A stretch of 64,000 bases of DNA, from contig CAWFOY010000001.1 of the NCBI GenBank assembly GCA_963817575.1, forward strand, positions 44,548-108,547, in the 5' to 3' direction. Source of the stretch: an uncultured Gemmatimonadales bacterium. GTDB taxonomy: Bacteria > Gemmatimonadota > Gemmatimonadetes > Gemmatimonadales > GWC2-71-9. A model generated the notes under the pieces. The model was not told the DNA's origin, did no database searches, and worked only from the letters and a program-made list of their open reading frames with translations. Shown here piece after piece: positions 3,453 to 52,273 of this stretch (its first letter is position 1; every line of letters starts with the position of its first letter). A program made the position numbers and the translations under genes.

Positions 3453-5491
3453 AGCAGATCGGTCGCTGCCGCGATCGCCTCGTGGGTTCCGGTGAGCGCC
3501 AGCACGTCGCCGTTGCGCAGGTGTTCCCGCGCGGACGGAAAGACCATCCGCTCGTCACCCCGCCTCAGCCCGACCACTGACGCCCCGGTCAGGCCGCGCA
3601 GGTTGAGCTCCGCCAGGCTCTGCCCCGATCCGGGGCTCCCCGCCCCGATCGTGACCTGAGTGAGATCGCCGATGCCGGGCAGGATCTTTCGCACCTCTTC
3701 CAGCATGCCGTCCTCACCCGTCGTCCGGCGATTCTGCCGCGCCAGCGCCTCGACGATCATCGTCGCCCCGGCCCGTACGTGGCCCTGCAGGTCGCGCGCG
3801 GAGCGCCAGAATGCGAGACCAAGCAGGAGCAGCAGCACGCCGAGGAACGCGGGGCCGCCGTAGGCCGGCAGGAACGGAAGCGTCACCGCGACGAGGGGGG
3901 CGCCGACGATCAGCACGATGCCGATCTGAATGCTGAGCCGGAGCGCGCGGCGCGGGGCGAGACCGAGGTCGGCCTTGCCGGGATTCGGCAGGGGCACGGC
4001 CATCGTGGAGAGCAGGGTTCCCAGGGCACGCGCGGCGCGGGCGATGCCATACAGGAGCGGAAACAGCACGGCGAGGGCCAGGGCCACGGCGCCGAGACGG
4101 ATCGCGGGCGGATCGAATCCGGTCAGCGTCGCGAGGTGCGCGGTGCCGCGGGTCACCGCCAGGGTCGAGCCCGCCACGATGGTCGCGAGCAGGACCGCGT
4201 CGAGGACGATGAACCGGGTGAGGCGGCGGATCCGGGCAGCCGGGGTGTTCGCTCGGGCGGCAAGCCGCGCCGATTCGACCCACGAGCCGTAGAGCGTGGC
4301 ATAGGTCTGCAACGCCCGGGGGAGCCGCCGGTCGGCGTAGTTCGCGACGGCGCTCGACTGCCCTACCAGCCAGTGCGTCGAGAGGGCCGTAATGGCCGCG
4401 ACCGCGACCGCCACGGGCGGAATGAAATCGCGTACGGCTCCGCTGGCGACACCGATCCCGGCGATGATGAAGGAGAACTCGCCGATCTGCGCGAGCGAGA
4501 GCCCCGCGCGCACGGCGGTGCGCGTTCCGAGGCCGGCGAGGAAGGTTCCGGCGGTGACGCCGGCGAACTTGCCGAGCAGGACTACAATCGTGAGAACAAC
4601 GATCGCGCCCCAGTGAGCCGGAATCGCGCCGGGCTCGATGGACATGCCGACCGCGACGAAGAAAATCGCGGCGAACATGTCGCGCAGCGGCCGCACCAGC
4701 GGTTCGACCTGGCGGCCCGCCCCGCCCTCCGCCACGAGCGCGCCGGCGAGGAATGCCCCGAGGGCGACCGAGTAGCCGGCAGCATGAGCCAGGAGGGCCA
4801 GGCCGAAGCAGAGCCCGACGCTTGCCACCAGCGTCGTCTCGTCCCGCCGGAGCCGCACCACCCAGCGAATCCAGCGGGGGACAATGAAGAGCCCCACGAC
4901 CATGACCCCCGCCAGGAAGGCCACCAGCCGAGTCAGCGTGCCGGCCACAACGTCGGCGGAGGGTCCCACGCCGGTCGCAACGGCGGTGAGCACCGCGATG
5001 AAGAGGATCGCGACGAGGTCCTCCACGACCAGCACCCCGTACACCACCTCGGCCAGCTTTCCTGCGATGTGCCGCTCGTGAAAGACCTTGGCAATGATCA
5101 TCGTGCTCGAAATCGACACGATCGCGCCGGCGAAGAGACTCTCCAGCCGGGTCCAGCCCATGAGCTGCCCGGCGATGAAGCCGAGTCCGAGGCACAGCCC
5201 CACCTCGATGGCCACAATGAGGCCGGCCGTGGAGGCGAGCCGCCCGAGCTTCCGCACCGTGAAGCCGAGCCCGAGGGAGAACATCAGCAGGATGACGCCG
5301 AGCTCGGAGAGCGTGCGCACGGTTTCGACGTCGGCCTGGACTGGCGGAAAGTCGTGCGGGCCGAGGGCGATCCCCGCCACCAGATAGCCCAGGACCGGGG
5401 GCAGCCGCAGGCGCTGGAAGAGGACGCTCGTGACGGCGGCGATGCCGAGGACGAGGGCCAGATTGGTCAGGAAGGCGGCGGCGGAGTCCAT
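3398..5491 (-). CDS. Monovalent cation:proton antiporter (CPA2/Kef-type) with C-terminal RCK/TrkA-C domain
   Basis: 697-aa ORF with a polytopic N-terminus (LVLGIAAVTSVLFQRLRLPPVLGYLVAGIALGP) typical of KefB/YbaL. The C-terminal TrkA-C-like segment reads GQSLAELNLRGLTGASVVGLRRGDERMVFP. The 3' end overlaps the glycosylase gene by 55 nt in convergent orientation. Confidence 0.85.
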   Translation of the reverse strand: MDSAAAFLTNLALVLGIAAVTSVLFQRLRLPPVLGYLVAGIALGPHDFPPVQADVETVRTLSELGVILLMFSLGLGFTVRKLGRLASTAGLIVAIEVGLCLGLGFIAGQLMGWTRLESLFAGAIVSISSTMIIAKVFHERHIAGKLAEVVYGVLVVEDLVAILFIAVLTAVATGVGPSADVVAGTLTRLVAFLAGVMVVGLFIVPRWIRWVVRLRRDETTLVASVGLCFGLALLAHAAGYSVALGAFLAGALVAEGGAGRQVEPLVRPLRDMFAAIFFVAVGMSIEPGAIPAHWGAIVVLTIVVLLGKFAGVTAGTFLAGLGTRTAVRAGLSLAQIGEFSFIIAGIGVASGAVRDFIPPVAVAVAAITALSTHWLVGQSSAVANYADRRLPRALQTYATLYGSWVESARLAARANTPAARIRRLTRFIVLDAVLLATIVAGSTLAVTRGTAHLATLTGFDPPAIRLGAVALALAVLFPLLYGIARAARALGTLLSTMAVPLPNPGKADLGLAPRRALRLSIQIGIVLIVGAPLVAVTLPFLPAYGGPAFLGVLLLLLGLAFWRSARDLQGHVRAGATMIVEALARQNRRTTGEDGMLEEVRKILPGIGDLTQVTIGAGSPGSGQSLAELNLRGLTGASVVGLRRGDERMVFPSAREHLRNGDVLALTGTHEAIAAATDLLQGGDSSERHKYQDATVR

Positions 5492-5497
5492 GGAGGG

Positions 5498-5503
5498 AAG
5501 ATA
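5498..5503 (-). promoter_or_regulatory. -10-like TANNNT (TATCTT) 6 nt before the antiporter ATG
   Basis: The minus strand reads catctgcc catctgcc cgtctgtc caTATCTTccctccATG. No SD sequence is present. Confidence 0.3.
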
Positions 5504-5504
5504 T

Positions 5505-5536
5505 GGACAGACGGGCAGATGGGCAGATGGGCGGGA
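5505..5536. repeat. Octamer array, about 4 units (GGACAGAC GGGCAGAT GGGCAGAT GGGCGGGA)
   Basis: Read directly from the sequence. It lies between the divergent antiporter and C-N hydrolase genes. Confidence 0.85.
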
Positions 5537-7210: not shown

Positions 7211-7249
7211 TTAACAGTCAGCTGCTCTAACCAACTGAGCTACTCGGGA
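7176..7249 (-). tRNA. tRNA-Asn (anticodon GTT)
   Basis: I folded it by hand. The acceptor stem is TCCCGAG/CTCGGGA, the anticodon arm is GCTGA-CTGTTAA-TCAGC, and the T-loop is GGTTCGAGTCC. CCA is not encoded. Confidence 0.9.
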
Positions 7250-7440
7250 AGGTGCTGCTACGCGGTGCAATCTTAATCAGCTGGCAGAAGGCGGGGAAGC
7301 GGGAAAGCGGGGACTTCCCTGCCTTGCCCCTTCCCGCCCGTTTTCCACCCTACCCACGCTCCTATCCACCCGTTTTCCGCTCTTTCCACATCCGGGTGCC
7401 CGAAAATCGACCCTCACGGTCGATGTGACAGGTCACTCGA

Positions 7441-9240: not shown

Positions 9241-9979
9241 CGGCGTCTCACCGGCCACTCGAGACAGGAGGAACGACATGACGACCCGAACCGACTCCCA
9301 GACCGACGGCATGCGTCCGCCGGCCCGGCTGTTCATGCGGGGAGGTTTGCTCCTCGGTGCGGCCGTGCTGGTGAGCGCACTCGCGGGCTGGCCGCGGCGG
9401 GCCGGCGCAGATGACTCGGCGCCCTCGCCATCGGCCGAGTTCGTCTCGCGCGAGATTCAGGACCTGACCGGCCGTCTTCAGGCGGCGCAGGGCGAAGCTG
9501 CATTGCTCAGAATCCAGCTGGAGCGCGCGGAGGCGGTGCACGGCTACTCCACGCAGTACCAGATTCCGGCCGACCTGGCCGCCTCGATCTACGATATCGC
9601 GCTGAGCGAGGGGATCGAGCCTGCGCTGGCGTTCCGGCTGGTGAAAGTGGAGAGCAACTTCAAGCAGACCGCGCGCAGTAACAAGGCGGCCATCGGCTAC
9701 ACGCAGCTCCGGCTGGCCACCGCGCGCTATTACCAACCCGGCATCACCGAGACCGAACTGGCCAACCGTGACGTGAACCTGCGGATTGGCTTCAGGTTCC
9801 TGAAGGACCTGCTCGAGCGGTTCGACAACAACCTGAACCATGCCCTCCTGGCCTATAACCGGGGGCCCACCATCGTGGCCGGGATCCTGGCCCAGGGCGG
9901 GGATCCGGCGAACGGGTATACGACCAAGGTACTCCGTGGAGACCCGCGCGCCGGGAAGCTCCCGACGACGCTGAACTGA
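9233..9979 (+). CDS. Lytic transglycosylase (SLT domain) protein
   Basis: The SLT motifs [21 protein letters not shown] and LLAYNRGP are present, with an N-terminal hydrophobic signal/anchor. The start is uncertain; alternatives are ATG 9278 or later. Confidence 0.75.
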
Positions 9980-9982
9980 TCA

Positions 9983-10044
9983 CAGATGGGCAGATGGGCA
10001 GATGGGCAGTCGAAGGTGCTGACCGCCTGTCCGACTGTCCGACG
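9983..10044. repeat. Composite repeat: (CAGATGGG)x3 + core TCGAAGGTGCTGAC + (CGCCTGTC/CGACTGTC) array
   Basis: Read directly from the sequence. It lies between the convergent SLT and ctaA genes. The same core follows arrays at 16079-16093 and 22986-22998. Confidence 0.85.
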
Positions 10045-10046
10045 CT

Positions 10047-11111
10047 TCAAGAGACGACGGCTGGCGCCCTGCGCCGGCCGTTCGTCGTTTGGAGCCCGTG
10101 GAGCGCCAGCACCGCGGCCGTGAGCACCAGAACCGCGCCCGCCTGGTGGAGCGCCGCGATGGGAATCGGCACGGCGAGCAGCAGGGTCGTCACGCCCAGG
10201 CCCGCCTGGGCCGCGGCGAGAAGTGCCAGTGCCCCCAGTGCCCGTCGCGTCGACGGGGGGGCGCTCCGCCGCCCACCCGTCCACAGCGCGAAGGCTCCCA
10301 GCAGCACCCCAAGCCCCAGCAGGCGGTGATGGAATTGCACCGCCCCCGGATTCTCGAACAGGTTGAGGTACCACGGGGTGAGCGCCGTGTACCCGGGTGG
10401 AATCACCCGGCCGCCCATCAGAGGGAACGTGTTCCACGCCTTCCCGGCGTCGAGCCCAGCCACGAAGGCACCCGAGAGAACCGTCAGGAACACGTAGAGA
10501 GCGAACCCTGCTACAACGCGGCGCAGCGCAGATTCCGCCTGTCCGCCTGACCGTCCGTCCGCCTGTCCGACGCCAAGCAGATCCGCCGCAGTCCAGACCG
10601 TGATGACGTAGATGACCAGCGCCAGTGCCAGGTGGGCGGCGAGGCGGTACTGGCTCACGTCCGTGCGCACGGTGAGGCCGCTCTCCACCATGTACCACCC
10701 CATCGCGCCCTGCAGCGCGAGCAGGACGAGGAGCAGCGCGAGGCGGCGCGCCAGAGGGCCGCTCACCATCCGCCTGGCAAGGAACGCGAGGAACGGCACC
10801 GCGAAGGCGAGCCCGACCAGCCGCGCCCAGAGCCGATGCACGTACTCGACCAGATAGATGCGCTTGAATCCGGCCAGGGTCATGCCGGGATTGTGAAGCT
10901 GATACTCCGGGATCTGGCGATACCGGGAGAACTCTGCCTCCCAATCAGCGGCGGAGAGGGGCGGAAGCGTTCCGGAGACGGGCTTCCATTCGGTGATGGA
11001 GAGGCCGGATTCCGTGAGTCGGGTGATGCCGCCGATGACGACAGTCAGGAGCACCAGAGCGGCCCAGACAGCGAGCCAGAGGCCGATGGTGCGGCGGTGG
11101 GTGGGATGCAT
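10047..11111 (-). CDS. ctaA: Heme A synthase (COX15/CtaA family)
   Basis: 354-aa polytopic ORF. The N-terminus GGITRLTESGLSITEWKPVSGTLPPLSAADWEAEFSRYRQIPEY is diagnostic of the COX15 type. Confidence 0.9.
   Translation of the reverse strand: MHPTHRRTIGLWLAVWAALVLLTVVIGGITRLTESGLSITEWKPVSGTLPPLSAADWEAEFSRYRQIPEYQLHNPGMTLAGFKRIYLVEYVHRLWARLVGLAFAVPFLAFLARRMVSGPLARRLALLLVLLALQGAMGWYMVESGLTVRTDVSQYRLAAHLALALVIYVITVWTAADLLGVGQADGRSGGQAESALRRVVAGFALYVFLTVLSGAFVAGLDAGKAWNTFPLMGGRVIPPGYTALTPWYLNLFENPGAVQFHHRLLGLGVLLGAFALWTGGRRSAPPSTRRALGALALLAAAQAGLGVTTLLLAVPIPIAALHQAGAVLVLTAAVLALHGLQTTNGRRRAPAVVS
10535..10572. repeat. Octamer array (CCGCCTGT type, about 4.5 units) inside the ctaA CDS
   Basis: The sequence ccgcctgt ccgcctga ccgtccgt ccgcctgt ccgacg encodes the loop GVGQADGRSGGQAE on the minus strand. 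Confidence 0.75.
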
Positions 11112-11116
11112 GCAGG

Positions 11117-11122
11117 AAAATA
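11117..11122 (-). promoter_or_regulatory. -10-like TANNNT (TATTTT) 5 nt before the ctaA ATG
   Basis: The minus strand reads ctgacccg ctgacccg ctgacccg ctg TATTTT cctgc ATG. No SD sequence is present. Confidence 0.3.
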
Positions 11123-11149
11123 CAGCGGGTCAGCGGGTCAGCGGGTCAG
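11123..11149. repeat. Octamer array (CAGCGGGT)x3
   Basis: Read directly from the sequence. There are four GGG tracts on the plus strand, and the array lies immediately upstream of the ctaA start. Confidence 0.85.
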
Positions 11150-15887: not shown

Positions 15888-15960
<73 letters not shown>

Positions 15961-16000: not shown

Positions 16001-16080
16001 GGGCGGATGGGCAGATGGGCAGATGGGCAGATGGGCAGATGGGCAGATGGGCAGATGGGCAGATGGGCAGATGGGCAGCC
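16001..16080. repeat. Octamer array, 10 units (GGGCGGAT, 8x GGGCAGAT, GGGCAGCC)
   Basis: Read directly from the sequence; it contains 8 perfect consecutive copies. It begins 41 nt upstream of the tRNA-Lys 5' end and is followed by the core CGAAGGTACTGAC. Confidence 0.95.
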
Positions 16081-16107
16081 GAAGGTACTGACAGCCCGTA
16101 TGCCGTT

Positions 16108-16680
16108 TTATGACAGGAACAGTTTCGCTATCAGCGCTCCTCCTGCACCCAGGAGCTGGCCCGCGAGGACATCGGTCACATAGTGCACTCGGAGGTAGAC
16201 TCGGGAGGCGCCGACGATGACGGCCAGGGCGAGGAGTGCCGCGCCTAGGAATCCCGGCCCTGTCAGGAGGACCGCCAGGGCAATCGAGATGCTGGCGGCG
16301 GCGTGGCCCGAGGGAAACGAGAACGCATCCGGGATGTGCACCAGTACGTCGAGCGAATCCACCGAAAGATGGGGTCGCGCGCGGACAACCGTTCGCTTGA
16401 GCGTTTGCACCGCGAGGTGGGAAGCGAGGTTGGCCAGTGCCGTCGCGATGCCGAGGGGGCGGGTGGCTGGATGTATCAGGAGAAACGCGGAGAAGAGGAT
16501 CGTCGCCCGGGCCCCGCCCGCGTGGGTGAGCGCGCGGAACCCGCGGTCGAGCCAAAGCGGCGCCCGCCGGGCCGCGATCCCTGCGAGCCACGCCCGATCC
16601 CAAGTGCCGACCTGCTCAACGATCATCCGCATCGTAGTGTCCCCCGTGAGGACGAGCGAATGATCCGCGGCAGGGGTCAC
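16108..16680 (-). CDS. PAP2-family phosphatase (phosphatidic acid/undecaprenyl-PP phosphatase-like)
   Basis: The tripartite PAP2 motif is present: KRTVVRARP, PSGH and SRVYLRVHYVTD. The start is GTG, with an alternative ATG a little downstream. Confidence 0.85.
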   Translation of the reverse strand: MTPAADHSLVLTGDTTMRMIVEQVGTWDRAWLAGIAARRAPLWLDRGFRALTHAGGARATILFSAFLLIHPATRPLGIATALANLASHLAVQTLKRTVVRARPHLSVDSLDVLVHIPDAFSFPSGHAAASISIALAVLLTGPGFLGAALLALAVIVGASRVYLRVHYVTDVLAGQLLGAGGALIAKLFLS

Positions 16681-16821: not shown

Positions 16822-17450
16822 TACAGTAATCCCAGCTGAGCTACCGGCCCGAAGCTCCTGCGGTGATGCGGGGTGGGGCCCCGCTCGGCGAGGGCGAGCA
16901 GGTGGCCCTCGCTGCCGTAGCCCTTGTTGGAATCCCAGGCGTAGCCGGGATGGCGGAGCGCGAGGCGCCGCATCAGCCGGTCCCGTACCGTCTTGGCGAT
17001 GATGCCCGCAGCCGAGACGCTCTGGCAGTGGGAATCGCCCTCGACCAGCGCCTCGTGGAGGAAGCCGATTTCCGGCATCTGCAGGCCGTCGAGGAGCAGG
17101 CGGGGAAGCGGGTCAGCGGGACAGCGGGTCAGGATGCGGACAACAGCCCTTCGCATGGCCAGCGCGGTGGCCACCCGGATGTTGAGCCGGTCAATCTCGG
17201 CCACGGAGGCGGCCCCAAGGGCCAACGCCAGTGCCGCCCGGCGGATCGTGACCGCAAGGGCTTCCCGCTGCGGGGCGGAGAGCGTCTTGCTGTCGCGGAG
17301 CCCGGCGAGGCGGTGGGCGCCGGCCGGAAACACGACGGCCGCGGCAACCACTGGACCCGCCAGTGGGCCGCGGCCCGCTTCGTCCACTCCGATGAGCAGC
17401 CGTCCCTCCGCCCAGACGGCCGCCTCACGGGACAGCGTCGGACGGCGCAC
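16821..17450 (-). CDS. rnhB: Ribonuclease HII
   Basis: The motifs IGVDEAGRGPLAGPVVAAAV, DSKTLS and SAAGIIAKTVRD are present. I chose GTG 17450 as the start because the track ORF (16821-18122) runs on through rplS and trmD in another frame. Confidence 0.88.
   Translation of the reverse strand: MRRPTLSREAAVWAEGRLLIGVDEAGRGPLAGPVVAAAVVFPAGAHRLAGLRDSKTLSAPQREALAVTIRRAALALALGAASVAEIDRLNIRVATALAMRRAVVRILTRCPADPLPRLLLDGLQMPEIGFLHEALVEGDSHCQSVSAAGIIAKTVRDRLMRRLALRHPGYAWDSNKGYGSEGHLLALAERGPTPHHRRSFGPVAQLGLL
17107..17133. repeat. Octamer array (AGCGGGTC type, 3 units) inside the rnhB CDS
   Basis: The sequence agcgggtc agcgggac agcgggtc encodes LTRCPADPL on the minus strand. Confidence 0.65.
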
Positions 17451-21370: not shown

Positions 21371-21409
21371 CCGCCCATCTGCCCATCCGCCCATCCGCCC
21401 ATCTATACT
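21371..21409. repeat. Octamer array (CCGCCCAT/CTGCCCAT x4), inverted relative to 20739-20838
   Basis: Read directly from the sequence. It ends in catcTATACT, 5 nt before ATG 21415. Confidence 0.9.
21404..21409 (+). promoter_or_regulatory. -10-like TATACT 5 nt before the DUF445 gene ATG
   Basis: The context is TATACT-ccgcc-ATG with no SD sequence. This is the closest match to TATAAT among the five cases. Confidence 0.35.
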
Positions 21410-21414
21410 CCGCC

Positions 21415-22977
21415 ATGGATTCTCCCACCCTGATCTCCGCCCTCCTCACCATCGCCGTAGGCGCTGTCGCGGGCGGCATCACGAACGCGGTGGCGATCTG
21501 GATGCTGTTCCATCCCTATGAATTGCGCGGGATCGGGCCGTTCCGGATCCAGGGCGCGATCCCCAAGAACAAGGCGCGGCTGGCCAGGAGCATCGGGAAG
21601 ACCGTTGGAGAGAAGCTCCTCACCGCGGAGGACCTGTCGCGGCGGCTCGCCGCGCCGGAGGTGCGGGCGGGATTCGACGCCGCGCTCTCCGGATTCCTCG
21701 ATGACCTCCTCGAACAGGAGCGCGGCCCCCTCCTCGACCAGCTGCCTCCCGACCTCGCAGCCCAGATCGAGGCCGGAGTGGACCGGCTGGCGGCGCGGGC
21801 AACGGAGCATCTCGCCGAGTACGCCGCCACGCCGGCATTCGCCGCAACGGTCGCAACCTGGCTCGACCGGTTGCGTACGGAGATCGGCGATCGCCCGATC
21901 GGGGAGCTGTTGACGCCGGACCGCCGCGCGTCACTTCAGGCGACGGTGGAGAGCTGGCTGCACGACCTCACCGAGGGGCCGGAGCTGGAAGCGGCGGTTC
22001 GTCATTTTGTCGAGATGCAGCTCGAGCGGCTTGGCAAGGACGATCGCCCGCTGATCGACCGGCTGCCGATCGGGCTGGTGGGCACGGTCGAGCAGTCCAT
22101 CCACGACTACCTGCCGGTGGCGATCGAGCGCATCGGCGCAGTGCTCGCCGATCCCGAGGCCAAGGGGAAGATCCATCAGGCTCTCCGGACCACCTTTGAC
22201 CGCTCCGTCCGCGATTTGCTGCTCCACGAGCGCCTGCTCGCCCGCATCGTGGTGACCGACCAGACCTTCACCCGCCTCCTGGACGGCCTCGAGCGCGAGG
22301 GGTTCGAGCGATTCGCCGAGTCGCTCTCGGCCCCGGACATGCGCGCCCAGTTGACCCGCGCCGTCAACGACGGGCTGGTGCACTTCCTCCGCATTCCGCT
22401 TAGCGAGCGGCTGGCGCGCATGGGTCCCGAGAAGCGCGCCGCCCTGGCCGGCACCCTGGGCGACTGGGGTATCGCGATCGTCCGGGACGAAACGACCCGG
22501 CGGGTCGCCGGCCGCGCGGTGGACCGCCTGCTTGCCGCGACGGAGCGTCGGACGTGGAACGACCTCCTCGGCAACGTGCCGCCGGAGCGCATTGCGAAAC
22601 TCCTCGCCGAGGCGCTCGCCGCGGACCGAGGGCGCCGGTGGGTCGAGGAGGCCGTGCGAAGCACGGCTCACGCGGTGCTCGCGCGCCCGGTCGGGCGTCC
22701 CTCGCGCTGGCTGGGCGCCGAGACGACCGGAGCCGTTCGGACGAGCATCATCCGCGCGGCATGGGAGTGGACCCACCGGCAGATCCCCCGCGTGGTGGAG
22801 CAATTCAACGTACAGGAGATGGTGGAGCACAAGGTGCTTGGCTTCTCCACCGAGCGGATGGAGCAGATCATCCGGGGCGTCACGCAGCGGGAGCTGACGC
22901 TGATCGTGCAGCTGGGGTACGTGCTCGGAGCGATTGTCGGCGTGGTGGCGTTCGGAGTGGGGTTGTTGTTCAGGTAG
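21415..22977 (+). CDS. DUF445 family membrane-anchored protein
   Basis: The N-terminal GGITNAVAIWMLFHP motif and a long helical body are present. I prefer ATG 21415 because the track start at 21238 reads through the repeat array. Confidence 0.75.
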   Translation: MDSPTLISALLTIAVGAVAGGITNAVAIWMLFHPYELRGIGPFRIQGAIPKNKARLARSIGKTVGEKLLTAEDLSRRLAAPEVRAGFDAALSGFLDDLLEQERGPLLDQLPPDLAAQIEAGVDRLAARATEHLAEYAATPAFAATVATWLDRLRTEIGDRPIGELLTPDRRASLQATVESWLHDLTEGPELEAAVRHFVEMQLERLGKDDRPLIDRLPIGLVGTVEQSIHDYLPVAIERIGAVLADPEAKGKIHQALRTTFDRSVRDLLLHERLLARIVVTDQTFTRLLDGLEREGFERFAESLSAPDMRAQLTRAVNDGLVHFLRIPLSERLARMGPEKRAALAGTLGDWGIAIVRDETTRRVAGRAVDRLLAATERRTWNDLLGNVPPERIAKLLAEALAADRGRRWVEEAVRSTAHAVLARPVGRPSRWLGAETTGAVRTSIIRAAWEWTHRQIPRVVEQFNVQEMVEHKVLGFSTERMEQIIRGVTQRELTLIVQLGYVLGAIVGVVAFGVGLLFR

Positions 22978-22985
22978 GATGGCCA

Positions 22986-23014
22986 GCCGAAGCTACTGTC
23001 CGCCTGTCCGCCTC
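22986..23014. repeat. Core GCCGAAGCTACTG + (TCCGCCTG)x2
   Basis: This is the third copy of the conserved core with an attached CGCCTGTC-type array, just after the DUF445 stop. Confidence 0.7.
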
Positions 23015-45262: not shown

Positions 45263-47665
45263 CTACTCCCCGTACGGGACCCAGATGTTCTTCACTTGCG
45301 TCGCGTGGCGCAGGAATGGCTCACCCTCGCCCCGGTCCGGGTCGTCCCAGGCCACCTGATGCCCGTGGTTGACCCAGGTCTGCTTCAGATTGCCGGCTGA
45401 CAGCTTTTCGACCTGGGTGCTTCCCTCCGCCGTGCCCCAATACCACATCGCATCCACATCGTCGTGGGCGGCCAGCACCGCCGATAGCTCTTCCCGGGGT
45501 CCGGTCACCAGGTTGATCACGCCCCCCGGCAGGTCCGAGGTGTCGAAGACCTGGTAGAGGTCGGTGGCGAGGAGCGGCCACCGGGCGGAGGGAATCGCCA
45601 CCAGGGTGTTGCCCATCGCGACCGGTGGGATCACCGTGGAGAGGAAACCGAGCAGGGGCCAGTCCTCGGGAGCCACGACGCCCATGACGCCCAGGGGTTC
45701 GGGCATCGCGAGCGTGATATTGCGATATGGCGTGTGGTGGACGCGGCCGTCCCACTTGTCGGCCCACGCGGCGTAACTAAACAGGCGCGAGAGCGAGAAC
45801 TCAACTTCCTTCTGCGCATCGGCGTGCGAGCGGCCGGTGAGCGCCTCGAGTCGCGCGGCGAACTCTGCCTGGCGGACGGCGAGGTTTTCGGCGAGATAGT
45901 ACAGCACCTGCGCGCGGTTGTGGGCCGTCGCGCGGGCCCATCCCGCCGCCTTGTGCGCGGCCTCCACGGCGTTCCTGATGTCCTTGCGATTGCCATGCCC
46001 AACTTCGGCGATGAGCCGCCCGCCTGCATCGTGCACCGGCAGGCTGTAGCCGGAATCGGGACGCGCCTGCTTGCCGCCGATGTAAAGCTTGGGAGAGCGG
46101 TCTATCGAGGGATGGGCAGATGGGCGGATGGGCCGTGGGATCACCGCAGCGGCTGCCTGCGCGTACGCCTGAGTTGCCGCCCCGCTGCCCATCTGCCCAT
46201 CCGCCGTGCCGTCCTTCACATACTCCCACAACCCTTCCTTGCCGCCCTCCCGTCCGAATCCGCTCTCGCGGTAGCCGCCGAAGCCCGAGGCGGCGTCGAA
46301 GACGTTCGTGCAATTGATCCAGACCGACCCCGCCTTGATGCGAGGGGCGATGTCGAGTGCGAGGTTGATGTTCTCGGTCCAGACGCTCGCGGCGAGGCCG
46401 TACCTGGTGTTGTTGGCGAGCTCGACCGCCTCATCGGGCGTGCGAAACGTCATCATGACGACGACCGGGCCGAAGATCTCCACCTGCGCGATCGTCGCCG
46501 ACGGGGACACGTCGGTGAAGAGCGTCGGCGGGAAGAAGTAGCCCTCCTTCGGGCAGCTCCACGACGGCTGCCACATCGTGGCGCCTTCGTCCTCGCCCTT
46601 CTGCACCAGCTCGCGGATCTTGTCGAGCTGAACCGGTGCGATGATGGCGCCGATGTCGATCGCCTTGTCGAGCGGGTCGCCCACGCGAAGGGTCTCCATC
46701 CGGGCGCGGAGCCGCGCCACCAGCCGGTCCGCCACGCCCTCCTGGGCCAGGATCCGGGAGCCGGCACAGCAGACCTGCCCCTGATTGAACCAGATCGCAT
46801 CCACGACACCCTCGACCACGCTGTCGAGGTCGGCATCCGAGAAGACGACAAAGGGCGACTTCCCGCCCAGCTCGAGCGACAGCTTCTTGCCGGTGCCGGC
46901 CGTGGTCGCGCGGATGATGCGGCCGACGTCGGTGGATCCGGTGAAGGCGATCTTGTCCACGTCGGGGTGCTTGACGATCGATTCGCCGGTGCGCCCGTCG
47001 CCGGTGAGGATATTCACGACGCCGGGCGGGAGACCGACCTCGTCGCACAACTCGGCGAAGAGCAGCGCCGTCAGGGGTGTGAACTCGGCCGGCTTCAGCA
47101 CGACCGTGTTCCCCATCGCGATGGCCGGCGCGATCTTCCAGGACAGCATCAGGAGCGGGAAGTTCCACGGGATGATCTGCCCGGCCACGCCGACCGGTTC
47201 CATTCCGGGCATCTCACGCTCCATCAGCTGGGCCCAACCCGCATGATGGTAGAAGTGCCGCGCCACCAGCGGCACGTCGATGTCGCGCGATTCGCGGATC
47301 GGCTTCCCGTTGTCCAGCGATTCGAGCACCGCGAGGAGCCGCGTGTGCCGCTGCACGGCGCGCGCGAGGGCGTAGAGATAGCGCGCGCGCCCGTGTCCCC
47401 CGAGAGCGGCCCAGTCCGGCTGGGCCGCTCGGGCCGCTCCGACGGCGCGGTCCACGTCCGCTGCCGACGCCTGCGTCACCTGCGCGAGGACCCGCCCTGT
47501 GCCTGGATTCACGGTGTCGAAGAGCTCGCCGGGCGCAGTCCACTGCCCGCCGATGTAGACGCCGAAGGCCCGGCGGTGGCGGTCGAGCCATTCCTCCGCC
47601 GGCTTCGCCGATTCGGGCGCCGGGCCATATGACATGCTCGCGAAGATCTCGGGTATGGATGCCAT
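45263..47665 (-). CDS. Double-domain aldehyde dehydrogenase: complete ALDH + repeat-derived linker + truncated ALDH-like (NAD-binding half only)
   Basis: The N-terminal ~500 aa carry LELGGKSP and FNQGQVCCAGSR (catalytic Glu and Cys). The C-terminal ~255 aa align to the first half of an ALDH (KLYIGGKQ..AMGNTLV..GVINLVTG) and stop where LELGGK would be. The linker is encoded by octamer arrays. Confidence 0.85.
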   Translation of the reverse strand: MASIPEIFASMSYGPAPESAKPAEEWLDRHRRAFGVYIGGQWTAPGELFDTVNPGTGRVLAQVTQASAADVDRAVGAARAAQPDWAALGGHGRARYLYALARAVQRHTRLLAVLESLDNGKPIRESRDIDVPLVARHFYHHAGWAQLMEREMPGMEPVGVAGQIIPWNFPLLMLSWKIAPAIAMGNTVVLKPAEFTPLTALLFAELCDEVGLPPGVVNILTGDGRTGESIVKHPDVDKIAFTGSTDVGRIIRATTAGTGKKLSLELGGKSPFVVFSDADLDSVVEGVVDAIWFNQGQVCCAGSRILAQEGVADRLVARLRARMETLRVGDPLDKAIDIGAIIAPVQLDKIRELVQKGEDEGATMWQPSWSCPKEGYFFPPTLFTDVSPSATIAQVEIFGPVVVMMTFRTPDEAVELANNTRYGLAASVWTENINLALDIAPRIKAGSVWINCTNVFDAASGFGGYRESGFGREGGKEGLWEYVKDGTADGQMGSGAATQAYAQAAAAVIPRPIRPSAHPSIDRSPKLYIGGKQARPDSGYSLPVHDAGGRLIAEVGHGNRKDIRNAVEAAHKAAGWARATAHNRAQVLYYLAENLAVRQAEFAARLEALTGRSHADAQKEVEFSLSRLFSYAAWADKWDGRVHHTPYRNITLAMPEPLGVMGVVAPEDWPLLGFLSTVIPPVAMGNTLVAIPSARWPLLATDLYQVFDTSDLPGGVINLVTGPREELSAVLAAHDDVDAMWYWGTAEGSTQVEKLSAGNLKQTWVNHGHQVAWDDPDRGEGEPFLRHATQVKNIWVPYGE
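46108..46205. repeat. Inverted pair of octamer arrays inside the ALDH CDS
   Basis: The left arm is gggatgggcagatgggcggatgggc (46108-46133) and the right arm is gctgcccatctgcccatccgcc (46184-46205). Together they are translated as ..ADGQMGSG..IRPSAHPS.. on the minus strand. Confidence 0.9.
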
Positions 47666-47680
47666 GCGCTCTCTCCGCCC

Positions 47681-49573: not shown

Positions 49574-52273
49574 GTGACGATCGGCACCGAGGAACGTCTC
49601 CGGTCCGCCCTGGCGGACCGCTACCGCATCGAGCGTGAAATCGGCGCCGGTGGGATGGCCACTGTCTACCTCGCACAGGACCTCCGCCACGATCGCAGGG
49701 TAGCGCTGAAGGTCCTCCGGGCGGAGCTGGCGGCGGTCATCGGCGCCGAGCGCTTCCTCGCCGAGATCAAGCTCACCGCCAATCTCCAGCATCCGCACAT
49801 CCTTCCGCTGCTCGACAGCGGGGAGGCGGGCCAGCGCGAAGACGGGTCCGGGATCTTCCTCTGGTACACCATGCCGTATGTGGAGGGGGAATCCCTCCGT
49901 GCACGGATCTCCCGTGAGAAGCAGCTCCCGGTCGACGAGGCGGTGCGGCTCGCCACCGAGGTGGCAAGCGCGCTCGACTACGCTCACCGCCACGGCGTCA
50001 TCCACCGCGACATCAAGCCCGAGAACGTCCTGCTTCACGATGGACAGGCCCTGGTGGCCGATTTCGGCATCGCGCTCGCCCTGAGCAGCGCCGGCACCCG
50101 GATGACCGAGACCGGGATGAGCCTCGGCACGCCGCACTACATGAGCCCCGAACAGGCGATGGGCGAGCGCGAGCTCACCGCCCGCAGCGACGTGTATGCA
50201 CTCGGCGCAATGCTGTACGAGATGCTGGTCGGCGAGCCGCCGTTCACGGGCCCCACGGCACAGGCCATCGTGGCGCGGGTGGTCACCGAGTCGCCGCGGC
50301 CGCTCCTGCCCCAGCGGCACACGATTCCGCCGCAGGTCGAGGCCGCGGTGATGAGGGCTCTGGAGAAGCTGCCGGCGGACCGATTCGGCAGCGCGGCCGA
50401 CTTTGCAGACGCGCTCACCAACCCGATGGCGGCCCTTGCGGTCGCGCGCGGCGGCACGACCGCACTGCGGCCGGTGTTTCGGGGGCGTGGCCTGTGGAAT
50501 CCGCTTGCCATTGCAGCAACCGCCCTCGCCGTTGTGGCAGGAACAGCCGCCCTTCGGATGGCGCTCAAGACCACGCCCCGGCCGGTGACGCGGGTGAGCC
50601 TGGCTTTCGCCCCGACCGAGCGGCCATCTCAGATTGGATTCCTGCGCCTCGCGATCGCACCGGACGGACGGCGGTTCGTGTACGCCGGGCCGGGTGAAGG
50701 CGGATCGCAACTCTGGCTCCGGGAGCTGGACAAGCTCCGCGCGACACCGATCGTCGGCACCGAGGGCGGGGTCAACCCCTTTTTCTCTCCCGATGGCCGC
50801 CAGATCGGCTATTTCGATGCCAATACCTTCGCCCTCCGGATCGCCTCGCTGGCCGGCGGCCCGCCGGTGACGCTGGTCGAGCGGGGGAATTCCGGTGGAG
50901 GCGGGGCGTGGTCCCTGGATGGCTACATCTACTTCGACACCAACGACGGGCTGAGGCGGATCAAGGCGACCGGCGGCACAATCGAGCCGGCGGTCGCGCT
51001 GGACTCGAGCCAGGCAGAGCTCGGGCATGCCTGGCCCGATGTGCTGCCGAAGGGCCGCGGCCTGATCTATCGCCTGCGGCACGTGGGCCAGGACCCCCGT
51101 GAGTACGACATCAAGGCAACGGACCTCCGTACCGGGAAGTCGAAGGTGCTGGTCCGCGGCGTGCTCGGGCGCTATGTCGAACCGGGATACCTCGTCTACG
51201 TCACGGCGGAAGGCGACCTGCTCGCGGCGCCCTTCGATGAGGACCGTCTCGAGCTGACGGGATCGCCGACACCCCTCCTCGAGGGCATCGGAGTCCGCGG
51301 GCTGGGCGGGACGGACGTCGTGATCTCCCGGTCGGGGGACCTCATGTACATCACCGGCGCCTCCGGCGGCATCGCCGAGATGGTCTGGGTGGGGCGGGAT
51401 GGTGTGGCCCGCCCGGTCGACCCTGGGTGGAATGCGACCGGCGTGCTCGCCTCACTGGCGCTCTCGCCCGACGGCCGCCAACTGGCTATCGGGGTCATCG
51501 GCGGTGTCGGTGGGGAGGACCTCTGGGTGAAGCAGCTCGACACTGGCCCGCTCTCGCGGCTCACGTTCGAGGGGGGCACCAACCTCAGGGCGTCGTGGAG
51601 CCCGGACGGACGCTTCGTACTCTACACCGGTGCGGACTCCAGTCTAGGGCTTCTCAGGAAGCGCGCGGACGGGAGTGGCGCGGCGGAAGTTGTGGTCCGC
51701 TTCCCGACCGAGATGGCCGAGAACCTCATGTCGCGCGACGGCCGCTGGATCGTGACCCGAAGCATCACGGGCATCGCCGGTGAGGGCGACATCTACGGAT
51801 TCCGGCCCGGGCTGGACACCGCGCCGACTCTCCTGGTCGCCACGAAGTTTCGTGAGACCAGTCCAGCACTGTCGCCCGACGGGCGATGGCTTGCATACAC
51901 CTCCAACGAATCGGGACGGCTCGAGGTCTACGTCCGGCCGTTTCCGGACGCCGCCACCGCACGGTGGCAAGTCTCGGTCGCAGGAGGGACGGAGCCGCGC
52001 TGGGCGCACAGCGGGCGCGAGCTCTTCTACCGGAACGGCGCCGGGGACCTGATCGCCGCGGAGGTGCGCGGCGTTCCTGCGTTCTCCGTCGTGCAGCAGC
52101 AGCGGCTCTTTTCCGCCTCGCCGTTCTTCTCGCTTCCCCCCCACTTCGGCTACGAGGTCGGGCCGGACGACCGGCGATTCCTGATGGCCCGGATGGAGCG
52201 GAGCGAGGAGGGAAGCGAAGTCGTGCTGGTGCAGAACTGGCGTGAGGAACTCAAACAGATCGGGAAACGATGA
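49574..52273 (+). CDS. Ser/Thr protein kinase with TM helix and C-terminal TolB-like (PD40/WD40-like) beta-propeller
   Basis: The kinase motifs GAGGMATVYLA, VALKVL, HRDIKPEN, DFGIA and SPEQ are present. A TM segment is followed by repeated SPDGR motifs. I prefer GVG 49574 by analogy with the paralogues; the track start is TTG 49532. Confidence 0.88.
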   Translation: MTIGTEERLRSALADRYRIEREIGAGGMATVYLAQDLRHDRRVALKVLRAELAAVIGAERFLAEIKLTANLQHPHILPLLDSGEAGQREDGSGIFLWYTMPYVEGESLRARISREKQLPVDEAVRLATEVASALDYAHRHGVIHRDIKPENVLLHDGQALVADFGIALALSSAGTRMTETGMSLGTPHYMSPEQAMGERELTARSDVYALGAMLYEMLVGEPPFTGPTAQAIVARVVTESPRPLLPQRHTIPPQVEAAVMRALEKLPADRFGSAADFADALTNPMAALAVARGGTTALRPVFRGRGLWNPLAIAATALAVVAGTAALRMALKTTPRPVTRVSLAFAPTERPSQIGFLRLAIAPDGRRFVYAGPGEGGSQLWLRELDKLRATPIVGTEGGVNPFFSPDGRQIGYFDANTFALRIASLAGGPPVTLVERGNSGGGGAWSLDGYIYFDTNDGLRRIKATGGTIEPAVALDSSQAELGHAWPDVLPKGRGLIYRLRHVGQDPREYDIKATDLRTGKSKVLVRGVLGRYVEPGYLVYVTAEGDLLAAPFDEDRLELTGSPTPLLEGIGVRGLGGTDVVISRSGDLMYITGASGGIAEMVWVGRDGVARPVDPGWNATGVLASLALSPDGRQLAIGVIGGVGGEDLWVKQLDTGPLSRLTFEGGTNLRASWSPDGRFVLYTGADSSLGLLRKRADGSGAAEVVVRFPTEMAENLMSRDGRWIVTRSITGIAGEGDIYGFRPGLDTAPTLLVATKFRETSPALSPDGRWLAYTSNESGRLEVYVRPFPDAATARWQVSVAGGTEPRWAHSGRELFYRNGAGDLIAAEVRGVPAFSVVQQQRLFSASPFFSLPPHFGYEVGPDDRRFLMARMERSEEGSEVVLVQNWREELKQIGKR

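Follow-up and report, generated by a model that had tools for sequence, protein, structure and literature searches.

The window analysed here is a 64-kb stretch of DNA (contig CAWFOY010000001.1, positions 44,548 to 108,547) with a GC content of 68%. The best named homologues of its CtaA, PAP2 and DUF445 proteins, which flank the sites discussed below, all belong to metagenome-assembled genomes of Gemmatimonadales, and its source was therefore identified as a Gemmatimonadales bacterium. Three gaps between genes in this window carry a composite repeat, in which tandem octamers stand beside a short shared core. At locus 1, 67 nt separate the stops of two convergent genes, one for an SLT-domain protein (9979) and one for CtaA (10047); locus 2 is flanked by tRNA-Lys and by the stop (16108, minus strand) of a PAP2 phosphatase gene; and locus 3 begins at the stop codon of a DUF445 gene (TAG, 22975-22977). 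The initial annotation had described three composite sequences in these gaps, with a core placed after an array A and, in two of them, before an array B, and all three were found at their places. The general layout is (GATGGGCA)n, here termed arm A, followed by a tip with the consensus CCGAAG-N-TA and then by the roughly complementary (CTGWCCGN)m, termed arm B. The sequence CGAAG within the tip is present in seven of the eight aligned copies from the window and its relatives.

The observation is real and non-random, with two corrections to the anatomy (Table 1). A shared core does stand beside the arrays, but it does not join two arrays as a separate module, since its 3' third is the seed unit of array B; the first unit of (CTGWCCGN)m is the end of the core as originally drawn. 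At locus 1, Tandem Repeats Finder (TRF) places the start of arm B at CTGACCGC, which overlaps the last 5 nt of the 14-nt core, so that the non-repetitive part is 9 nt only, TCGAAGGTG. Arm B of this locus is laid out as CTGACCGC CTGTCCGA CTGTCCGA C and ends 3 nt short of the convergent ctaA stop. An array A before the core was confirmed at loci 1 and 2, but locus 3 has only one degenerate unit (two to five in its orthologues), and hence there is no A array at this site in the source genome. No B array is present at locus 2; instead of it, AGCCCGTATGCC looks like a decayed complement of about 1.5 A units, and it pairs with the last A units in the computed folds of this locus. Read on the minus strand, arm A of locus 2 is (CTGCCCAT)9, directly upstream of the promoter-like sequence TTGAAT-17 nt-AACCTT of tRNA-Lys.

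Table 1. Components of the three composite loci, adjoining genes and further octamer arrays in the window.
Feature	Position	Strand	Remarks
SLT-domain gene, TGA stop	9977-9979		Pfam
Locus 1 arm A, (GATGGGCA) x3.4	9983-10009	+	TRF, 100% match; 4 nt past the SLT-gene TGA
Locus 1 core, TCGAAGGTGCTGAC	10010-10023	+	unique tip, 10010-10018
Locus 1 arm B, (CTGTCCGA) x3.1	10019-10043	+	TRF, 88% match
ctaA	10047-11111	minus	Pfam
tRNA-Lys	15888-15960	minus	
Locus 2 arm A, (GATGGGCA) x9.8	16001-16078	+	TRF
Locus 2 core, CCGAAGGTACTGAC	16079-16092	+	
Locus 2, AGCCCGTATGCC	16093-16104	+	9/12 match to the reverse complement of 1.5 A units; PAP2 stop next
PAP2 gene	16108-16680	minus	
Locus 3 single degenerate A unit, GATGGCCA	22978-22985	+	right behind the DUF445 TAG stop; 22978-22986 is GATGGCCAG
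Locus 3 core, CCGAAGCTACTG	22987-22998	+	
Locus 3 arm B, (CTGTCCGC) x2.2	22996-23013	+	TRF
Context array, unit ATGGGCAG x3.8	5503-5532	+	minus strand abuts TATCTT-6 nt-ATG of the Na/H exchanger gene
Context array, (CAGCGGGT) x3.4	11123-11149	+	minus strand (CTGACCCG)3 abuts TATTTT-5 nt-ATG of ctaA
Array, (GATGGGCA) x10, without tip in the source genome	20748-20838	+	upstream of ffh (minus); TRF
Context array, (CCGCCCAT) x4	21371-21403	+	abuts TATACT-5 nt-ATG of the DUF445 gene; conserved in L218
Well-formed hairpin with array arms: GATGGGCA type, then an insert of 51 nt, then CTGCCCAT type	46111-46205	+	

The 12-mer YCGAAGSTRCTG has four exact matches in the window against 0.04 expected, a count reached in none of 100 shuffles, and 14 matches with up to one mismatch against 3.7 expected. 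Of the four exact matches, three stand immediately behind the G[GC]CAG of an A (GATGGGCA-type) unit; the fourth (51140), which is not associated with an array, lies inside a Ser/Thr-kinase/PD40 gene. As this pattern was taken from the same loci, the enrichment test is partly circular, and independent support was sought in related and metagenome DNA, the contigs of which are cited by L numbers. In about 300 kb of related high-GC DNA, [CT]CGAAG stands at the 3' end of the G-rich strand in 6 of 80 arrays of period 8 and any unit (0.97 expected, P ~5e-4), and at the opposite end in none of the 80. Among 60 non-redundant metagenome arrays with at least three copies of GATGGGCA, collected without bias, four are directly followed by C[CG]AA[AG]G (0.7 expected, P = 0.006). 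By our own arithmetic, the probability that a 12-of-14 match abuts another of ~10 arrays is near 1e-4. The full 14-mer, with up to one mismatch, was found solely at the three window loci in 254 kb, and a strict search of metagenomes for the core preceded by two A units gave no match; the relatives deviate by one base or by an inserted G. The complete composite of arm A, tip and arm B recurs in relatives at locus 3 of L218 and in the rnhB-PAP2 gap of L219. Arrays and tip are physically linked beyond chance. The core is neither at chance frequency nor detached from the arrays, and the three sites are copies of one composite sequence, in agreement with the original claim that they are not independent slippage products.

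Eight syntenic contigs (L118, L119 and L216-L222, less two distant ones) were compared with the window, and the metagenome contigs L166 and L179, which are orthologous at locus 3, were added. Locus 3 consists of one A unit, CCGAAGCTACTG and 2.2 B units in the window, and of two A units, CCGAATCTACAG and (CYGTCCGA) x3 in L218. In L179 and L166, five and four A units, respectively, are followed by CCAAAGATACTGAC with no arm B, the octamer CTGACCGC being single-copy. A different G-rich array, GCGGGGAW, precedes the partial tip GTCGAAGAG in L222 (89% DUF445 identity), and L221 (74% DUF445 identity) has neither array nor tip. This series shows that the number of arm units changes, that the tip outlasts the arrays and that arm B is born by duplication of the tip's 3' octamer, an origin to which the single CTGACCGC of L179 and its duplicate in the window clearly point. 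Changes of copy number at fixed loci are likewise shown by the arrays of L126 and L164, with 8 and 6 units between near-identical flanks, and by the array upstream of ffh, with 10 units in the window and 5 in L218. Tip identity between the locus 3 orthologues is 67-83%, compared with 72-85% for the adjacent non-coding DNA, and by this measure no extra constraint on the tip is detectable.

Only at locus 3 is the combination of arm A and tip retained between orthologous gaps. At locus 1, L118 and L119 (91% and 85% CtaA identity) have 23-26-nt spacers of other octamers (TCCGCTTT, AACTTCCC) and no tip. At locus 2, L218, L219 and L220 (87%, 93% and 84% PAP2 identity) have C-rich period-8 arrays without tip, placed between the PAP2 stop and the conserved TTGAAT-17 nt-AACCTT of tRNA-Lys, the units of which differ from one another and from those of the window. 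In L218 a tip stands upstream of ffh, in reverse complement, as …GAGTAGCTTCGGC(CTGCCCAT)5, where the window array has none, and the rnhB-PAP2 gap of L219 has one as (GATGGGCG)4-G-CCGAAGATACGGAC-CGGCGGTCGGCCCGTCCGTC, where the window gap has none. Its absence from the orthologues of loci 1 and 2 and its presence at these two other gaps show that the composite comes and goes at different gaps within a short evolutionary time. The composite thus turns over between loci, whole spacers being replaced and not interrupted.

These sites belong to a larger population of octamer arrays. Sorted by period, the window contains 12 arrays of period 8 and 0-1 for each other period between 5 and 12, and 278 kb of related DNA contains 60 period-8 arrays, 37 of which came in via our own query, against at most 9 for any other period. 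Arrays of the GATGGGCA type occur at no fewer than 9 sites in the 64 kb. The unit types vary (GATGGGCA, GATGGGCG, CAGCGGGT, GGACAGGC, GGAAGTTR, GACGGAAC and others); 10 of 23 distinct units fit the C-rich strand pattern CTKNCCNN (2.0 expected), and stop codons precede the G-rich strand of an array in 21 cases against 8 for the C-rich strand. In the distant syntenic contigs (64-68% CtaA identity) there are almost no period-8 arrays; ctaA and the SLT gene overlap in both, which leaves no spacer there. Upstream of four genes (13-27; 5491-5509, minus; 11111-11127, minus; 21404-21417), a TAnnnT hexamer stands 5-6 nt before the ATG, which is the geometry predicted for a leaderless-type promoter, and a C-rich octamer array reaches right up to this hexamer in all four. 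The array was also considered as the provider of a -35 element, a role that was rejected because its spacing to the -10 is inconsistent (17, 19 and 5/13/21 nt).

Some arrays of this lineage form far more stable structures than the composite loci of the window. With both arms intact, the array-armed hairpins upstream of ctaA have folding energies of -74 kcal/mol for L119 (z = -7.6) and of -65 kcal/mol for L218 (z = -7.4), that at locus 2 of L219 has -51 kcal/mol (z = -6.8), and window 46100-46215 folds as RNA with -67 kcal/mol (z = -4.2). Behind the hairpins upstream of ctaA comes UAGUUUUCC-type sequence, with the start codon immediately after it. Beyond the lineage, arrays with at least three copies of GATGGGCA were found in metagenome contigs of 35-75% GC (L120-L215), which shows that the GGGCAG-NN octamer repeat extends beyond Gemmatimonadales; many of these arrays are hairpins of a G-rich arm, a loop and a C-rich arm in contigs of 55-60% GC (L150, L154, L212).

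Octamer arrays also occur in frame within genes. An imperfect period-8 array in ctaA (10534-10569, minus) covers codons 180-192, a variable loop between the protein halves, and an array of a different unit occupies the same position in L119 (3781-3807). The coding region of rnhB, for RNase HII, contains a period-8 array (AGCGGGTC/AGCGGGAC) at the same position in the window (17103-17132) and in L220 (758-774). In addition, an open reading frame (ORF) of 805 aa (45263-47680, minus) comprises a complete aldehyde dehydrogenase domain and the N-terminal half of a second one, and its linker is the hairpin at 46111-46205 read in frame (…ADGQMGSGAATQ…RPIRPSAHPS…). This ORF looks like two genes fused by a former intergenic hairpin, or like a pseudogene. 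The in-frame arrays in ctaA, rnhB and the aldehyde dehydrogenase fusion argue for a genome-wide mutational process filtered by selection.

On balance, and with considerable reserve, we favour the view that all three sites carry copies from a single sub-family of dispersed elements, octanucleotide tandem repeats of the variable-number tandem repeat (VNTR) kind. Replication slippage would drive the lengthening, shortening and de novo birth of the arms, and spread would most likely proceed through ectopic recombination among the numerous identical arrays, or template switching from one to another, and not through transposition. Such copying could drag along 10-20 adjacent bases. The element would belong to the lineage-wide period-8 arrays that fill gene 3' flanks and promoter-upstream gaps; when well formed, these arrays would make very stable hairpins followed by U-rich sequence, and in the three window copies this hairpin form would be weak or decayed and its sequence-specific function slight or absent. 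The array with its tip has the appearance of a by-product left by slippage and copying of repeats, much as in the Brucella octamers discussed below, and does not resemble a transposon or an RNA gene. Recent common descent probably accounts for the persistence of the tip, which probably has no sequence-specific job of its own; its CGAAG, or CUUCGG, may favour hairpin nucleation, and the element as a whole would have at most a weak hairpin or insulator role. CUUCGG is a classic RNA tetraloop with its closing pair (cUUCGg). C-G-N-A-G is the core of mini-hairpin DNA, GCGNAGC (PMC13037366), and this loop core is matched by the CGAAG of the tip in seven of the eight copies. The outer Watson-Crick pair that mini-hairpin DNA requires for stability exists in only some copies here, those of the CCGAAGG type (such as locus 2, L184 and L164). 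The match to the loop core may be the reason for the place of CGAAG at the hairpin tip.

Several points weigh against the VNTR reading. The copying mechanism was deduced and not observed, and the data comprise no more than a 64-kb part of the source genome together with some short contigs of relatives. Slippage does not account for the period of 8, for the presence of CTKNCCNN in 10 of 23 units where 2.0 are expected, or for the 21:8 bias of the G-rich strand after stop codons. Nor does it account for the CGAAG-type tip that stands behind arrays of other units as well (L221, GAAGCGGG; L222, GCGGGGAW) and behind arrays in 60% GC contigs (L184, L181). Together, the period, the unit pattern, the strand bias and the tip behind other units hint at selection or at a dedicated mechanism. 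Moreover, the hairpin is weak in the window copies, whose folds have z values against shuffles of -1.4 (plus strand), +2.0 and -0.3 as RNA and of -0.5, -1.4 and +0.1 as DNA at loci 1, 2 and 3, respectively. It appears improbable to us that the arrays are written or maintained at gene boundaries by a dedicated period-8 mechanism, with the tip as leader or nucleation point for the complementary arms of self-renewing terminator or insulator hairpins; candidates for such a mechanism could be a factor that recognises CTKNCC at 8-bp intervals, or a synthesis by fold-back or template switch with the CGAAG/CUUCGG tip as its nucleation point.

Among the other explanations, the main one, which is possible although unlikely, regards the period-8 arrays, bounded on the inside by the tip, as functional punctuation that selection maintains to insulate or terminate transcription. 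The C-rich strand, CUGCCCAU, with four C to one G and poor folding, would load Rho on transcripts entering the neighbouring gene; alternatively, G-quadruplexes or R-loops would arise after stop codons from the G3N5 repeats of the G-rich strand, or CTKNCC would be recognised by a protein at 8-bp intervals. The fact that gaps keep their arrays while the unit sequence turns over, the 21:8 orientation behind stop codons and the enrichment of CTKNCCNN (10/23 units against 2.0) all speak for such a role, as do the C-rich arrays that abut the -10-like TAnnnT of the four leaderless-type starts and the -35 of the tRNA-Lys and ffh promoters. The array of locus 2 would also suit it, yielding on the PAP2 strand a C-rich RNA of 72 nt without structure (z = +2) and a G-quadruplex (G4) motif on the other. 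This motif (four runs of at least 3 G, 1-7 nt apart) was found at locus 2 (10 runs), 20748 and 21371 and was absent at locus 1 (3 runs) and locus 3, and the G-rich unit array (GGGCAGAU)n may be a candidate G4 former. The orientation rule is broken in 8 of 29 cases, however, more distant relatives do without any spacer, the tip is under no detectable extra constraint, and the arrays in frame inside ctaA, rnhB and the aldehyde dehydrogenase fusion fit a mutational process filtered by selection. An intrinsic-terminator-like site (GC-rich stem-loop with U tract) was called at none of the three loci; among the further hairpins with array arms in this lineage, those of L119 and L218 do have the terminator form. 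A likeness of flanks arising by chance beside independent microsatellites is scarcely credible, although the unique part has only 9-14 nt, the statistical pattern was defined after the fact, and AAG-GTG-CTG are common codons with one exact copy within a gene: the four matches to YCGAAGSTRCTG where 0.04 were expected are joined by an association that is direction-specific and reproduced in independent contigs, and the tip is kept at locus 3 in five genomes (the window, L218, L166 and L179 on GATGGGCA-type units; L222 partially, on another unit).

Of the three structured elements named in the initial annotation, a miniature inverted-repeat transposable element (MITE) and an RNA are not supported by the data; the third, a protein-binding module, may be a candidate. 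A miniature element resembling a MITE or the repetitive extragenic palindromic (REP) sequences and bacterial interspersed mosaic elements (BIME), mobilised in trans and with arms A and B as imperfect terminal inverted repeats, would suit the several dispersed copies, the variable presence among close relatives, the roughly inverted relation of the two arms and the GTAG in the reverse complements of some tips. We nevertheless regard it as quite improbable. The array units are the sole inverted repeats found at the three loci, with no terminal inverted repeats beyond their complementarity (9 nt); a 13-nt inverted pair at locus 1 sits in the flanking genes and also exists in relatives that lack the element. 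No target-site duplications were seen when occupied sites were compared with orthologous ones, and whole spacers differ. The copies, one of which (locus 2) has no arm B, share neither ends nor length, their similarity stopping after about 25-30 nt, and no transposase was seen beside any copy, though none was sought. A structured non-coding or cis-regulatory RNA hairpin with the core as functional loop is very improbable. On the plus strand of locus 1, arms A and B can form a hairpin of -29 kcal/mol with the use of G.U pairs, and the copy of L219 is the only clearly structured one with a tip (-46 kcal/mol, z = -3.8). CUUCGG and C(GAA)G are, in addition, known hyper-stable loop sequences (for mini-hairpin DNA, see PMC13037366). 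Against this, Rfam gave no family match at the loci, its hits being two tRNAs in the window and RNase P RNA elsewhere among 20 related loci. RNAalifold obtained no shared structure from the eight copies (-0.78 kcal/mol, two invariant pairs and no compensatory pairs). When the locus 1 hairpin was imposed on the alignment, 66% of the cells were paired, compared with 27-45% in slid registers and 68% in column shuffles, with no double changes; the pairing, being equal to that of column shuffles, reflects shared ancestry and no detectable selection. None of the window copies folds better than its shuffles, whether as RNA or as DNA, and as RNA at least two of them do not rise above shuffles at all. 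Nor did a strand bias emerge: copies occur in both orientations relative to the upstream gene, their orientation to the flanking genes is inconsistent, and in the L219 copy the strand that folds better is antisense to both neighbouring genes.

Repeats of a comparable architecture are known from other bacteria. In Brucella, the octamer AGGGCAGT of the HOOF-Print loci (hypervariable octameric oligonucleotide VNTRs) is tandemly repeated at eight hypervariable loci (PMC7589603, PMC1183211, PMC9416531), and two common reverse primers serve all eight, which means a shared flank (PMC9416531 and its supplement; PMC1183211). In both systems an 8-bp unit stands in tandem at several separate, mostly intergenic loci (eight in Brucella, at least 9 GATGGGCA-type sites here), the copy number varies (between strains in Brucella, between related genomes here), and a flank is common to the loci on one side, here the 12-14-nt tip at the three window loci and in relatives. 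The units also share GGGCAG, 6 of 8 bases (GGGCAGTA against GGGCAGAT). By contrast, the shared Brucella flank (…AGTATGTT…) is unrelated to CCGAAGGTAC, and the Rev-1 and Rev-3 flanks are unlike CCGAAGGTACTGAC. The phylum differs, the second, complementary array type and hairpin arrangement of the present loci is not described in the cited Brucella papers, and many octamer units coexist here and replace each other at orthologous gaps. As three architectural features agree and sequence homology is lacking, the Gemmatimonadales arrays represent an analogue of HOOF-Print in another phylum, not a homologue. Heterocystous cyanobacteria have short tandemly repeated repetitive (STRR) sequences, which are lineage-specific, intergenic heptanucleotide repeats with one odd period; their period is 7 instead of 8, their units are AT-richer, and we know of no shared unique tip or paired complementary arrays among them. 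The REP/BIME elements of enterobacteria and the BOX elements of Streptococcus pneumoniae are modular intergenic repeats of few module types, often behind stop codons and capable of forming hairpins. They likewise occur in variable number, but their modules are 20-45-nt palindromic or unique sequences and not 8-nt microsatellites, and REPs are tied to RAYT transposases; nothing of this kind was encountered in the 64 kb, though no RAYT gene was sought, and the three window copies show weak palindromy, against imperfect palindromes of 20-40 nt in REP/BIME. Geobacter metallireducens contains multicopy elements of four tandem octanucleotides (GTTGCTYN, TWGTTGAY), some in opposite-strand pairs, which were proposed as sites of global regulators (PMC2700814); about four copies are fixed per site and the units are conserved there, whereas copy number is variable and unit turnover rapid in the present case. 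No description of such octamer repeats was found in the literature for Gemmatimonadota/Gemmatimonadetes, and the complementary array types around a shared tip, the coexisting unit types and the replacement of units at orthologous gaps were not found described before.

If the VNTR reading is true, this lineage, which belongs to a little-studied phylum, reshapes its intergenic DNA chiefly via 8-base microsatellites that expand and contract, swap unit type, are copied between gaps and occasionally enter proteins in frame or fuse genes. Such arrays would provide ready-made hypervariable strain-typing markers for metagenomes, as HOOF-prints do for Brucella, and would call for caution when promoters, terminators or small ORFs of such genomes are annotated. 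Taken alone, the specific core is of minor weight, and the lineage-wide period-8 phenomenon is the larger picture. The period of 8, the G-rich strand after stops and the recurring CGAAG tip could point to an unrecognised mutational or regulatory mechanism.

A pattern scan of genome contigs with ATGGSCAGYCGAAGSTRCTG returned 117 loci (L001-L117), all of them coding and without arrays, mostly at the GyrA motif D-G-Q-P-K-L/V-L. The last A unit together with the tip (GATGGGCAGCCGAAGGTRCTG; 10001-10021 and 16070-16090) reads D-G-Q-P-K-V-L, the conserved GyrA motif, and this resemblance explains why gyrA of many phyla was retrieved. The resemblance may be a coincidence or may reflect an origin of unit and tip from a gene fragment. 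At 51131-51151, GGGAAGTCGAAGGTGCTG in the Ser/Thr kinase-PD40 gene is identical in 17 of 18 positions to the locus 1 junction GGGCAGTCGAAGGTGCTG and encodes G-K-S-K-V-L. Two further readings of the tip, a Shine-Dalgarno-like GAAGGTG and the terminal part of a small ORF (ATG GGC AGY CGA AGG TRC TGA), fail at locus 3, L218 and L219. A tRNA link of 16833-16853 (minus), which is similar to a tRNA 5' half and preceded by the core-like CAGGAGCTTCGG, was rejected, as this is conserved coding sequence for the C-terminus of RNase HII. The leader and first bases of tRNA-Asn (CAGCACCT|TCC; 7250-7257 with 7247-7249, minus) include the 10-mer CAGCACCTTC, the reverse complement of part of the locus 1 core, which is probably a chance match; a C-rich octamer array (7287-7311) lies upstream of the tRNA-Asn promoter too.

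In metagenome contig L164 (~2316-2440), and equivalently in L126 and L149, (GATGGGCA)n is followed by a conserved hairpin of ~110 nt (GCGAGCCGAGCGGTGAGTCCAGAGGGCAC…GGACTCACCGCTGGCGAGCGC). This hairpin had no match in Rfam and may be an unannotated RNA. Behind it, L164 has an array of GTCGGTCC, and L149 has only an imperfect CTGACTGTCCGTCAGTCC stretch.

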